From NCBI RefSeq assembly GCF_030384885.1, contig NZ_CP128613.1: a stretch of 64,000 bases of DNA. One strand, given 5' to 3'. The notes beneath the pieces are model-generated. The model had not been told where the DNA came from and made no database searches. It was given only the letters and a program-made list of their open reading frames with translations. The stretch is from Escherichia coli (GTDB lineage Bacteria; Pseudomonadota; Gammaproteobacteria; Enterobacterales; Enterobacteriaceae). The translations under genes and the position numbers were made by a program. Shown in pieces: positions 11,794-21,640 of this stretch; positions within the stretch are counted from its first letter, which is position 1, and the number at the start of each line of letters is the position of its first letter.

Positions 11794-11883
11794 GGAGAGA
11801 TGCCGGAGCGGCTGAACGGACCGGTCTCGAAAACCGGAGTAGGGGCAACTCTACCGGGGGTTCAAATCCCCCTCTCTCCGCCA
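11794..11883 (+). tRNA. serU: tRNA-Ser
   Basis: 90 nt GGAGAGATGCCGGAGCGGCTGAACGGACCGGTCTCGAAAACCGG...CTCTCCGCCA, long variable arm typical of tRNA-Ser. Confidence 0.9.
11870..11883. repeat. attL core: serU 3' end (CCCTCTCTCCGCCA)
   Basis: 14 bp identical to the copy at 34279-34292. Confidence 0.6.
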
Positions 11884-16893: not shown

Positions 16894-17298
16894 TTAGATG
16901 GCAAAGTCTTCCAGTGTCTTACCAGCTTCGATAGCAGCAGCGATTGCTTTAGGAGTACGGCCCTGACCCGTCCAAGTCTGCTCATTACCGTTTTCATCTG
17001 TATATTTGTATTTAGCAGGACGAGGAGCACGAGTTGATTTGGTTTTAGGCTGGGATGAACCAACTGAAGCGAGTAGTTCTGTAGGATCGATACCGTCTTC
17101 TAATAATTTCTGGCGGAAGGCTTCAAGTTTAGCCTGACGTTCTTCTTGTTCTTTACGGGCTGAATTTTCTTCCTCACGGCGATCTTCAACGATTGTGGTG
17201 AGTTTTTCCAGCATCTCTTCCAGAGTTGCCAGATCTGTTTCACGAGCCTGTGCGCGAAGTGTACGAATATTGTTCAGTGCCTTAAGAGCTTCACTCAT
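16894..17298 (-). CDS. hfp: H-NS family nucleoid-associated protein (Hfp/H-NS paralogue)
   Basis: C-terminal DNA-binding motif [10 protein letters not shown] and H-NS-like coiled-coil N-terminus; 134 aa. Confidence 0.8.
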
Positions 17299-17997: not shown

Positions 17998-18045
17998 TTA
18001 GCTCTTTAGCTCTTTAGCTCTTTAGCTCTTTAGCTCTTTAGCTCT
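17998..18045. repeat. Perfect octanucleotide tandem repeat (TTAGCTCT)x6
   Basis: Six exact copies counted directly, 64-111 bp upstream of the 17934 start codon. Confidence 0.95.
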
Positions 18046-18126
18046 GTTTCTCTCTTGGTAAGAAAATCCCTTTAGTGTAATAGGAGGTTATTACGGAGAT
18101 ATTTTTGCCTGTTTTTCCGCTGGTAA

Positions 18127-18684
18127 TTAATTTTTGTTATTCACTGTTTTCTTTTTGTCCTTCAAGTAATAAGTTTTCATGAAAGTTAAACGATCACCAT
18201 TAAACATATAGTCTGGATTAATAAAATAATAGTTCTGTATCATGGTCTCAGCAATAAATTTCTTGTCAGCAAGTTCTTTCATCCCTTTGAAATATGTCGT
18301 TCTTGATATTTTTACAATCTCTTGATCAACAATATCGAATGACATTAATATCGTATCTGTATCTTTATTGTCTCTAATAGCAAGATACAGTATCTTAAAT
18401 ACTTTCTTACCTGATGAGGATAAACCCTCAATAGCTGATACGCCATCCACATAAAGCTTCACGAACTGTGTCTTGTCTACTTCCATTGACTGAAAGAAAC
18501 CACCATGCCCAACCTGTTCTCCTGTATTTTCATTTACTACGGCTAAGCGGTCTTTTCCTGTTGTGATACGTCTGATACCTGTTTTTGTATGTATATTTGT
18601 ATCATTAAGGAATGGGTTTTTTACATGGCGAGGTAGACCTCTTCTTGATTTCTTTACTTCCGTTTGTATCTTATTTTCTATCAT
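18127..18684 (-). CDS. Hypothetical protein
   Basis: 185 aa ORF, basic N-terminus; no motif recognised. Confidence 0.4.
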   Translation of the reverse strand: MIENKIQTEVKKSRRGLPRHVKNPFLNDTNIHTKTGIRRITTGKDRLAVVNENTGEQVGHGGFFQSMEVDKTQFVKLYVDGVSAIEGLSSSGKKVFKILYLAIRDNKDTDTILMSFDIVDQEIVKISRTTYFKGMKELADKKFIAETMIQNYYFINPDYMFNGDRLTFMKTYYLKDKKKTVNNKN

Positions 18685-19096
18685 GGTACTTACTCCTTTA
18701 TTTTTTTAGTTATACATTTAAGTAAATACTATATTTTGCGTGCAAGTCAATACTTAAAGTTTATATTTTTTAAAATAACTAACACTTGATGTTTTTACGT
18801 ATAAAACTTGTAGTGCTACAGAATATATACAAATAACACTTTATTATTTTTATTTGAGAATAGTTATCAACTTAAGTACCGGGATTCGGGACTTTAACTC
18901 CCGAGAGTGCGTACTTTGTTTTAAGCTATAGCTGGCTTGAGAGCAGTTTTCTTCTTCATTATTCAAATAGCGAAGCTTTGGATGACATTTTAAAGAATAT
19001 AATATTGGAAATAGTTCTTCTTTTTAGTTGATTGGTGCCTTATCAAAATGGCACCAGTGGTGTTATCTGTGTTATTTTTCCTACTATGTTATTACA

Positions 19097-19276
19097 GCGA
19101 AGTGATTGTTGTATACAATCACGAACCGCTGCTACTATCGGGACTGCTTGATTAATTTTACTTTAACTTTATATGCGTCTACGACGCGATCTTTTTTGGA
19201 TAAATCCAATATTAACAGGGGCAAGCCCTGTTCAGCAGAGTGATTGTTCGCAACAATCACGAAGTGCTGCTATCAA
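19097..19276. promoter_or_regulatory. Pair of related ~40 bp elements, each containing a 21 bp palindrome (GTGATTGTTnnnAACAATCAC), with intervening hairpins
   Basis: Palindromes at 19102-19122 and 19240-19260 followed by the conserved tail GAA(C/G)(C/T)GCTGCTA; hairpin plus T-run 19171-19195; hairpin 19216-19230. Confidence 0.5.
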
Positions 19277-19602
19277 GGATATAGTTTTCCTATACGTTTA
19301 AGAGCAAATGCTATATGTCTAAAGGGAAAAACTATGTTTAAACATAGGATCTAAATTCAGCATCATGAGGAAAAGAGATCAAACAATGATCGAGTACTTT
19401 TCTTTTTATTTAAAAAACAGGAGATGAATAAAATAAAAATATCAGCGTCAGGGCGTAGCCGTGCGTAAGCACAGAGATAAAGATCTTTTCAATAAGAAGT
19501 TTAATAATCAGTAGTGAAATCATAAATAAAATAAAAATATATTTGATTTTTACGCCTGCGATAGAGTATTAAACAGTAATAAAATAATAAAAGGAAAATA
19601 TA

Positions 19603-19872
19603 ATGAACAATACCAAAATGATCACTCTCTTCCATCCACATGACAAAACACCATTTATAATCTGTATTGTAAACAAAGTAGAAGATACAGACCACGGATT
19701 GAAATTAACCCTTGAAAACGGCAACAATATTTGTGTCAATAATTATAGTCATTATCTGTTATCAGAGTCTGTAAGTCGTTGCGATAAACACAGGTTAAAA
19801 AATATTTATATTCGCTTGGTTTCAGAACTCACGCAGATGAGTGAAAAAACTATAAATTCGCAAATGTTATAA
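19603..19872 (+). CDS. Hypothetical protein
   Basis: 89 aa ORF after a long AT-rich non-coding region. Confidence 0.3.
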   Translation: MNNTKMITLFHPHDKTPFIICIVNKVEDTDHGLKLTLENGNNICVNNYSHYLLSESVSRCDKHRLKNIYIRLVSELTQMSEKTINSQML

Positions 19873-19950
19873 AATATCTATAAAGACATAATAAATATTT
19901 TTGATATTATGATTAGTTGCATGGTATTAAATAAAAACAGGAAAAATATC

Positions 19951-20355
19951 ATGCTAAAAATAAAAACAAAGATCTATATACCTACAACTTTAACAGGAAA
20001 CATGGATAAACACTATATCCCTGTTTTAGAGGATTTAAGAAAAGCGATATACAGCGACAGAATGTTATCAAGGCTTGCAGATAGCGGCAATATTGTTATC
20101 CATAGTTCAGTTGGGTATCCGGTTGCTAAATACAAAAATACGGGTATTAGCATAGGTATAGAACCATTGAATCCAATGATAAGACAAAATCTGACTCTTG
20201 GATATATTATGGTTGTCAGAAACGGAAAAGCATCACAGGAGATTAATGGTTTACTTAACAGGTCATTGCCAAAAGCAATAAGCACTTTTAAGGATCACAT
20301 CAATGAATATGAAGCAGTAAAAAGTAAAATGCGACAACAAACTATGATCTGGTAA
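19951..20355 (+). CDS. Hypothetical protein
   Basis: ATG 19951 preceded by agga RBS; 134 aa. Confidence 0.35.
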   Translation: MLKIKTKIYIPTTLTGNMDKHYIPVLEDLRKAIYSDRMLSRLADSGNIVIHSSVGYPVAKYKNTGISIGIEPLNPMIRQNLTLGYIMVVRNGKASQEINGLLNRSLPKAISTFKDHINEYEAVKSKMRQQTMIW

Positions 20356-20469
20356 AATATTTAGTCTGATAACTACAGGAGAAGGATGAGCAATGGAAGG
20401 TAAGTTAATTTTTGTTCCGATGCAATACTACGGTTTCAATCCAATTACGATGAAACCGCTGCCGTTCCA

Positions 20470-21432
20470 TTGCTATCCATCCAGAACGTCATAGCCAATA
20501 CCGATCCGTTCTTTCTTCTCCGGTTCTTCCACCATACCGTTCTGATTGAAGAAGGAACAACGCTGGCAAGTATCTTTCTGGCAATAGAACCATGGAAGGC
20601 TTTGTTAGCAGCTTATCTGGACAGAGATGTTGGTGCTTATATAGATGAGGTAAGAAAACCGTCCGGGCCAACGGCATGGGATATTGAATGGATCGGAATT
20701 GACCGTCGAAGTTCGGTTTATCGCGCTTACAAGCGTCAGGATATGGAAGAAGGGGAGGATTTTTCGACCTATTTTAATCGCGAGCGCTTCCCGACTGATG
20801 AGCTTGACATAGAAAGTAGCTGTGATGCTTCCGGCTTTATCAAAGGAGATAAAGAACGCTGGAGTATCAGCGGCGATATTCAACAAATTAAAAATCTTCC
20901 TGTAATCCTCTATAGCAAACAGACATTAATGACTTCACCGAAAGACGGTTTGCTGAAGAAAAACGTATCGGGTGTGAAGAGTTCCAAGCACAGTTGCTTT
21001 GTTTATGGCGATACCTCGTTTTCTTTTAGAGAGGTTATGGAAGCCATCTTCATTAGTAGGCTGTTCTTCTATGCACCAAAAGACGCAGCCAGCAGCCTTG
21101 ATGAGCTGAAAGCGAGTCTGGCTGAACTGGAAGAAGAACGTGCTGAAAGCACAAATACGGAGTCGATCGGCAATGAAACAGGTGAAGAACCTACCATCGT
21201 CGTAGCCGACGGTGCTTTTGATTCGCTCGCTGCTCACATGGAGTCTGAAAAGCGGAGTGGCAATCCATTAAGAAGTTGTGCCAGCAGGAAGGAGGGCTGC
21301 CCATACGTATTGGCAACATCAAAATGGCTGAGCCTCCAGCGTTATAGCTATTTTAAGAAAAGAAATGATGTAAATATGCATCTGGTTTTTCTTTATAATG
21401 TAAGGATGTCCGATGAAACATCAGCATCGTGA
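20470..21432 (+). CDS. Hypothetical protein (non-ATG start, higher GC than neighbours)
   Basis: 320 aa ORF beginning at TTG; acidic helical segment (DELKASLAELEEERAE); start uncertain. Confidence 0.3.
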   Translation: MLSIQNVIANTDPFFLLRFFHHTVLIEEGTTLASIFLAIEPWKALLAAYLDRDVGAYIDEVRKPSGPTAWDIEWIGIDRRSSVYRAYKRQDMEEGEDFSTYFNRERFPTDELDIESSCDASGFIKGDKERWSISGDIQQIKNLPVILYSKQTLMTSPKDGLLKKNVSGVKSSKHSCFVYGDTSFSFREVMEAIFISRLFFYAPKDAASSLDELKASLAELEEERAESTNTESIGNETGEEPTIVVADGAFDSLAAHMESEKRSGNPLRSCASRKEGCPYVLATSKWLSLQRYSYFKKRNDVNMHLVFLYNVRMSDETSAS

Positions 21433-21640
21433 ATGTTATCTGGTTAATAATTTTCTTATGTAATATTATCTATGCCATCTGGCTATGTTTTCAATTGTTT
21501 TAGTTCTCGACAACTGTTTTTATATCCAGTATGATTTTACTCGTATCCGGCAGAATATTTTTAGATGCTGTTTCATGAACTCCGGTTGAAAGGTTTATTC
21601 TCTACTTTTGGGAATAATAGTTAAAATGGAGATAAGTGTA

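Follow-up and report, generated by a model that had tools for sequence, protein, structure and literature searches.

Positions 19603–21432 of an Escherichia coli contig as a probable backbone segment of a ROD21-like island with an inactivated ORF3

We analyzed a stretch of 64,000 nucleotides of Escherichia coli DNA (contig NZ_CP128613.1; hereafter the window) and conclude, with a probability of about 80%, that its segment 19603–21432 is a conserved part of the backbone of an integrative mobilizable island of the ROD21-like (EARL) type, in which ORF1 and ORF2 are intact and ORF3 is a recently inactivated pseudogene; the estimate applies to this reading as a whole. A first-pass annotation of the same DNA had reported three co-oriented ORFs of 89, 134, and 320 aa upstream of thsA, and the ORF list showed that all of them are present on the plus strand. 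That annotation was right in treating them as real genes, in setting the third apart, and in suspecting a decayed 5′ end, whereas its toxin–antitoxin pair did not hold up and the second frameshift escaped it. The features discussed are collected in Table 1.

Table 1. Coordinates of the island, the three genes, and their surroundings in the window
Feature	Position	Strand	Basis or remark
EARL island	about 11884–34292		integrated at tRNA-Ser
Conserved hairpin-rich non-coding element	19085–19285	.	~320 nt upstream of ORF1
ORF1 (SEN1988 orthologue), 89 aa, intact backbone gene	19603–19872	+	ORF list; ATG start
ORF2 (SEN1987 orthologue), 134 aa, intact, dispensable backbone gene	19951–20355	+	ORF list
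ORF3 pseudogene (SEN1986/c2406 orthologue), true extent	20393–21347	+	alignment to intact alleles; ATG 20393 to TAG 21345–21347
Frameshift 1, T5 run	20409–20413	+	alignment; T6 in intact alleles, codon 7
320-aa TTG ORF, artefact	20470–21432	+	ORF list and alignment; pseudogene middle frame, then ~60 codons out of frame running into cassette DNA
Frameshift 2, A4 run	21248–21251	+	alignment; A5 in closest intact allele, codon ~286
Cargo cassette, type I Thoeris, in the slot adjoining ORF3	21348–23754	+	similarity limits and Pfam
thsA	21641–23077	+	SIR2_2 (1e-29), STALD/SLOG (6e-72)
thsB	23094–23705	+	ThsB_TIR (6e-12)
125-aa lipoprotein gene (SEN1984 equivalent)	23755–24132	-	conserved right flank of the slot
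MobA/MobL (MobQ) relaxase	26888–28369		MobA_MobL
PilV shufflon	30323–31759
P4-type tyrosine integrase	32897–34114	-	Arm-DNA-bind_3, Phage_int_M, and Phage_integrase domains

The island and the place of the three genes

The tRNA-Ser gene lies at 11794–11883, and its last 14 bp (CCCTCTCTCCGCCA) are repeated at 34279–34292, just beyond the integrase gene. Inside these limits, genes for a DUF6387 protein and a 616-aa NACHT protein are followed on the minus strand by those for H-NS, DUF4756, and a RepL-like wHTH protein; then come ORF1–3, Thoeris, the 125-aa lipoprotein, DUF4755, the MobA/MobL relaxase, and the PilV shufflon. ORF1–3 have the RepL-like wHTH gene on one side and a cargo slot, which holds Thoeris here, on the other. 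The features expected of an EARL element were found, i.e. a tRNA gene with a direct repeat, an integrase, and, in the conserved order, genes for an H-NS paralogue, a MobQ relaxase, and a type IV pilus, and synteny with four compared loci supported the H-NS/relaxase/pilus order. The AlpA-type RDF is an AlpA/HTH gene known from the annotation of collinear E. coli islands.

Of the complete E. coli genomes, about 10% carry a collinear island at this site, and the window agrees in gene order with the annotated serU islands of this species. The identity of the island follows from the tRNA repeat, the integrase, the H-NS/DUF4756/RepL-like genes, the relaxase, the PilV shufflon, and the collinearity with the serU islands and with the ROD21 gene table. 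This is the island known as serU/tcpC in CFT073 and Nissle, a published member of the ROD21-like (EARL) group (PMC6035254, PMC10655114); as an integrative mobilizable element, it would be capable of excision and transfer.

In ROD21, the gene order is SEN1990 (DNA-binding), SEN1989 (an extra small hypothetical gene of 300 bp), SEN1988 (270 bp), SEN1987 (423 bp), SEN1986 (963 bp), SEN1985, and SEN1984 (378 bp); SEN1986 is the orthologue of CFT073 c2406, SEN1985 is a SAM-methyltransferase in the cargo slot, and SEN1984 is a lipoprotein, while SEN1988, SEN1987, and SEN1986 are annotated as ‘hypothetical’ in the ROD21 table (PMC3198454, PMC6035254, PMC10655114). The first-pass annotation had listed the three ORFs as unknown. 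They are no unknown module and appear to be the equivalents of SEN1988, SEN1987, and SEN1986 of a known island family, as judged by order, length, and the about 86–88% identity of the Salmonella Enteritidis matches rather than by direct alignment with the ROD21 record. From the RepL-like gene (SEN1990) to the lipoprotein gene (SEN1984), the genes are arranged with the same order and orientation in ROD21, CFT073, and the window; SEN1988 has the length of the 89-aa ORF1, SEN1986 that of the 320-aa intact Nissle allele of ORF3, and SEN1984 that of the lipoprotein gene, whereas SEN1987 is matched by its place in the order to ORF2, which has 405 bp in the window. The tRNA site, integrase, H-NS, MobQ, and type IV pilus genes of the ROD21 scaffold also recur here. 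The window differs from ROD21 and c2406 in the two frameshifts of ORF3, in its insertion site (tRNA-Ser instead of the tRNA-Asn of ROD21), and in its cargo (Thoeris, as opposed to the SAM-methyltransferase of ROD21 and an HhH protein in Nissle). No function was assigned to the equivalents of SEN1986–1988 in the literature searched.

A lack of homologues with conserved reading frames had been named in the first-pass annotation as evidence that would speak against the genes; such homologues were plentiful for all three. Between island alleles, dN/dS was 0.13–0.25 for ORF1, 0.16–0.43 for ORF2, and 0.14–0.18 for the repaired ORF3, and this overall range of 0.13–0.43 indicates purifying selection on all three ORFs. 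Since conserved homologues are many and dN/dS is low, the ORFs are real genes and not chance reading frames. Scans of the three proteins against Pfam, PHROGs, NCBIfam, and PADLOC gave nothing above noise, and an Rfam scan of positions 18000–22000 gave no match.

The non-coding element upstream of ORF1 contains two 40-nt repeats with GTGATTGT-N5-ACAATCAC palindromes. Its fold as single-stranded DNA had z = -6.1, and 91% of the alignment columns were identical from E. coli to Klebsiella, the stems being invariant and the loops variable. The element is a candidate regulatory region for ORF1–3 and for the divergent RepL-like operon.

The family of intact ORF3 and a possible anti-defence role

Close homologues of ORF3 in the databases numbered 205, and full-length relatives with identities of 21–55% about 100. 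The intact protein is acidic (pI 4.6, net charge -25), and its confident AlphaFold model (pLDDT 90, pTM 0.86) consists of a conserved N-terminal α/β domain, which holds nearly all invariant residues, a following β domain with long strands, and C-terminal helices that an acidic, disordered linker divides. A fold search of the PDB with this model found no analogue, the similarities being at noise level, and comparison of the ORF3 profile with PDB sequences gave a best E of 0.087, which was low-complexity or designed-repeat noise. When 81 diverse members of the family alignment were scanned against Pfam, PHROG, NCBIfam, and PADLOC, the outcome was isolated weak matches of single members (E 3e-05 to 9e-03) and no meaningful family.

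The relatives reside mostly on metagenome contigs. Two diverged contigs share the synteny FolE-QueD-dNK-DUF488-N3a-[homologue]-T4_Y16D-PTH2, and in one of them Gad2 is nearby and eight of the ten tested neighbours match PHROGs. Further relatives were found in large phage-like contigs and in defence/MGE islands with ApeA, AbiEi, ART-PolyVal, HipA, and GmrSD, and one stands alone in a Thorsellia chromosome. The phage assignment of some relatives is putative and derives from the PHROG and Pfam matches of their neighbours; tblastn against INPHARED with a relative from a phage context found no relatives, and a scan of IMG/VR with a single protein found no close one. Across the contexts examined there was no constant neighbour. 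A conserved small upstream partner was also considered and rejected: the HicB-like, DUF488-N3a, and PRTase-family neighbours are unlike ORF2 and differ from one context to another.

Plasmids and phages encode acidic anti-restriction or anti-defence proteins, e.g. ArdA, Ocr, and the products of PsiB-type leading-region genes. Intact ORF3 is like them in being strongly acidic and in being carried by mobile elements and phage-like contigs, and ORF2 bears a weak fold resemblance to PsiB and AcrIIA11. Unlike these proteins, ORF3 shows neither sequence homology nor significant structural homology to them, and its family, at 318–370 aa, has a distinct two-domain predicted fold. The proposal that ORF1–3 are anti-defence or establishment genes expressed soon after transfer, intact ORF3 being an acidic protein that inhibits a host defence, is the strongest of the alternatives that we weighed, and we hold it to be unlikely. 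Homology to known anti-defence proteins is missing and structural similarity does not rise above noise; neither for ORF3 nor for ORF2 did the search bring up homology, in sequence or in fold, to an anti-defence protein already described. The oriT was not placed near ORF1–3, its usual site being beside the relaxase ~7 kb away, and a search for a MOBQ nick site gave no result above chance. In addition, ORF3 is commonly found frameshifted, truncated, or replaced, loss of ORF2 is also common, and the neighbours differ in every context, so that guilt by association with one system does not apply. An extended version, equally doubtful, would make intact SEN1986/c2406 a new fold, found in phages, defence islands, and EARL islands, whose part in element–host conflict (anti-defence or superinfection control) would be that of an acidic decoy or inhibitor; ORF1–3 would be an early establishment module downstream of the hairpin element, with only ORF1 and ORF2 active here.

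With low confidence, we suggest that intact ORF3 may be an acidic mobile-element or phage protein that binds a partner in element–host conflict and is not an enzyme, an idea drawn only from its charge, its context, and the absence of enzyme motifs. With about 100 diverged members and no family assignment, the ORF3 family is a reasonable target for surveys of phage and mobile-element proteins.

ORF1 and ORF2

Searches with ORF1 yielded 133 homologues, nearly all of 89 aa and without indels, with identities of 73–91% in Escherichia, Salmonella, Klebsiella, and Citrobacter; AGGA stands 9 nt upstream of its ATG. The 69 homologues of ORF2, a basic protein (pI 9.9), are confined to Escherichia, Salmonella, and Citrobacter. 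The longest mechanical frame of ORF2 has 148 aa from 19909, and the family alignment together with an AGGA Shine–Dalgarno motif favours the start at 19951. Comparison of the ORF2 profile with PDB sequences gave only low-complexity or designed-repeat noise. A weak match to orotate phosphoribosyltransferase (E 0.074) was discounted, since inspection showed that the PRPP-binding motif is absent from ORF2.

The first-pass annotation had suggested that the small pair could be a toxin–antitoxin module, and such an addiction module might stabilise the island. As in type II toxin–antitoxin systems, the two genes are small, adjacent, and co-oriented and lie on a mobile element; ORF2 is basic, and both are under purifying selection. 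Nevertheless, we consider this reading improbable. Neither protein has a toxin or antitoxin domain or fold (four profile libraries, and the ORF2 profile against the PDB), the intergenic gap is 78 nt, which we count as a difference from type II systems, and the genes do not strictly co-occur, each being losable alone: Nissle has a precise deletion of ORF2 and Klebsiella pasteurii lacks the gene, both having kept ORF1, and in SCU-204 ORF1 has an internal stop beside an intact ORF2. Two genes that are dispensable and independent of each other explain the observations better than an addiction pair does. ORF1 and ORF2 could be, again with low confidence, small island-specific regulatory or accessory proteins. 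The DanRI two-gene regulator described in a preprint, which consists of a LytTR regulator and a zinc-finger protein, was found to be irrelevant to these ORFs.

Decay of ORF3 and exchange at the cargo slot

The lesions of ORF3 were read from an alignment of the window to two intact alleles, those of Nissle (320 aa; WP_000398601.1) and of 1504D004 (327 aa). The results confirmed the decayed 5′ end suspected in the first-pass annotation: the loss of one T from the T6 run shifts the frame shortly after the true start, an ATG preceded by the Shine–Dalgarno sequence GGAGAAGG, and translation from this ATG ends after 33 codons at a stop at 20492–20494. A full-length member would have a frame of 318–327 aa that starts with MEGKLIFCSDAILRF and ends near ...PPAL; the copy in the window lacks this form and attains the length only after repair. 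Repair of both frameshifts gives a protein of 318 aa ending in ...PPAL, of equal length and ending to the intact K. pasteurii copy and identical with it at 282 of 318 positions. The first frameshift is shared with MS1657 and is absent from A4, and the second is common to MS1657 and A4, the equivalents in both being labelled ‘frameshifted’ by PGAP. The lesion in the T-run is the younger event, since it is present in MS1657 and not in A4. Other fragments of ORF3 in the database break at a third run, of A residues near codon 88–91; the gene has thus been lost repeatedly.

ORF3 in the window is therefore a recently inactivated pseudogene, and the 320-aa ORF is the longest frame left over. The TTG at 20470, taken as the start in the first-pass annotation, does open that frame; it is a by-product of the first frameshift and not the start of the gene, and no Shine–Dalgarno sequence precedes it. 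The second frameshift scrambles the C-terminus, and through it the last ~60 codons of the frame are read out of register beyond the natural stop. The frame also misses four of the ten nearly invariant residues of the family (F7, D10, L13, and R14), which belong to the lost N-terminus. It is possible that a truncated product arises by reinitiation at TTG 20470 or ATG 20743, and alleles of the kind found in A4, which carry the C-terminal frameshift only, could keep partial activity.

There is very little to recommend the view that the 320-aa TTG ORF represents a gene still intact, acquired horizontally and of different origin, even though the same sequence has been deposited as ‘Uncharacterised protein [Escherichia coli]’ (P0118) and its composition is distinct. 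The higher GC content reported in the first-pass annotation was reproduced (0.457, against 0.319 for ORF1, 0.338 for ORF2, 0.326 for thsA, and 0.307 for thsB; GC3 of the third ORF, 0.448). A different origin of the gene, which the first-pass annotation suggested, is possible; in all contexts examined the homologues have a slightly higher GC content than the DNA around them, and the gene stands at the recombination edge of the cargo slot. Compared with every intact homologue, the TTG ORF lacks the first 26 conserved residues and carries ~60 unrelated C-terminal residues, and no ribosome-binding site precedes the TTG. The annotation should be corrected to a pseudogene at 20393–21347 in place of the 320-aa gene, an artefact that is already in circulation as P0118.

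Programmed frameshifting or phase-variable slippage that would keep ORF3 functional is just as hard to sustain, although both lesions lie in homopolymer runs (T5 and A4) and further database fragments break at the third A-run: the frame would have to be shifted twice, independently, in runs that are too short to slip efficiently, alleles that are intact do without any shift, PGAP calls the gene a pseudogene, and there was no revertant at the A-run among 48 Thoeris-linked genomes.

The cassette next to the pseudogene is a type I Thoeris system by its Pfam domains, with a ThsA of SIR2 and SLOG domains beside a TIR-domain ThsB. Similarity to islands with other cargo ends at 21335–21343 and returns at 23753–23755; with some islands it ends already within ORF3, at 20472 and 20586. 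The slot holds an HhH/AbiTii-like gene in Nissle and a 195-aa gene with a restriction endonuclease in FDAARGOS_536; in SCU-204 a 194-bp stub of ORF3 is followed by a restriction endonuclease, and in F070 about 90 bp of ORF3 are followed by a DUF4238 gene.

Hotspots for defence cargo between conserved genes are known in mobile elements, e.g. hotspot 5 of the SXT ICE and the P2/P4 hotspots. The slot described here is of the same kind, being sharply bounded, with conserved flanks and varying cargo (Thoeris, restriction endonuclease, DUF4238, HhH/AbiTii-like). It differs from them in belonging to another element family and in that its left flank gene, ORF3, is itself eroded by the exchanges. An EARL cargo slot with a defined left edge would be useful for mining defence genes.

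Identity to the A4 and MS1657 islands was 86–96% in ORF1 and ORF2 and, in the case of A4, in the 5′ part of ORF3 as well; from about 20900 to the end of the Thoeris cassette it was 98–100%. Within ORF3 the profile jumps from 86–94% to 98–100%, which places recombination breakpoints inside the gene, and the island comparisons show that it is the left homology arm for exchange of cargo cassettes between islands.

The allele at the A-run of the second frameshift was read from the record spans of a 451-bp query over that run in complete E. coli genomes; counts with shorter queries were distorted by two SNPs private to the window. All 48 Thoeris-linked copies of ORF3 had the four-A allele (gapless 451-bp match), and each of the 12 listed non-Thoeris copies, in which the match ends at the slot edge, had one extra base at the run. 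These counts show that the frameshift hitchhikes with the Thoeris cassette, the linkage in E. coli being explained by the distance of only ~95 bp between the A-run and the cassette edge. An incompatibility of intact ORF3 with Thoeris was rejected as the reason for the frameshift, as K. pasteurii has an intact 318-aa ORF3 beside Thoeris.

Variable cargo within the island

The ends of the ROD21-like island were marked by a direct repeat, CCCTCTCTCCGCCA, giving an island size of about 22.4 kb. The contents of the cargo slot varied by strain among the window and the loci L001–L004, L009, L010, L019 and L022, and comprised Thoeris, an HhH/AbiTii-like protein, restriction endonucleases, DUF4238 and a 232-aa protein that matched PDC-M29B weakly; in ROD21 of Salmonella Enteritidis, the slot cargo was a SAM-methyltransferase. 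The literature search returned no paper connecting ROD21/EARL islands with Thoeris.

The islands of MS1657, Nissle and A4 had no annotated counterpart of the NACHT-domain protein, and in the collinear islands DUF6404 is followed directly by H-NS at this position. The results suggest a second defence-type cargo site within the same island as the Thoeris slot.

Features of the island and its Klebsiella counterpart
Feature	Position	Strand	Remarks
14-bp direct repeat	11870-11883 and 34279-34292		tRNA-Ser 3' end
NACHT-domain protein, 616 aa	14832-16682	+	Pfam E 3.8e-10
H-NS gene	16894-17298		downstream of NACHT gene
Non-coding element, 200 nt	19085-19285		five hairpins as single strand
Cargo slot	21348-23754		between ORF3 and 125-aa lipoprotein gene
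ORF3-Thoeris arrangement, Klebsiella pasteurii	L022 (CP073236.1) 5001-8741		collinear with E. coli

Conservation between E. coli and Klebsiella

The ORF3-Thoeris stretch displayed ~88% nucleotide identity between E. coli and Klebsiella. Despite this, 468 of the 478 amino acids of ThsA were identical, which implies that ThsA is under strong purifying selection.

Across islands from E. coli to Klebsiella, conservation of the hairpin-rich non-coding element was 91%, exceeding that of the flanking genes; its stems were invariant and its loops variable. Its single-strand fold had a z of -6.1, and it contained a pair of 40-nt repeats, both of which carried a GTGATTGT-N5-ACAATCAC palindrome. Rfam gave no match. 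The sequence could be an operator for the RepL-like wHTH protein; alternatively, it could be a single-strand DNA element.

ORF3 homologues and a database artefact

Two diverged T4-like phage-type metagenome contigs (L006 and L017) carried an ORF3 homologue at the same position, directly after a DUF488-N3a protein of 132-136 aa and before T4_Y16D, with 7-deazaguanine synthesis genes upstream. The adjacency of DUF488-N3a to the ORF3 homologue may be meaningful.

The protein database entry P0118 (‘Uncharacterised protein [Escherichia coli]’) was identical to the product of 20470-21432. It is the frameshift-derived 320-aa ORF, an annotation artefact that propagates; its cluster held 74 member sequences.
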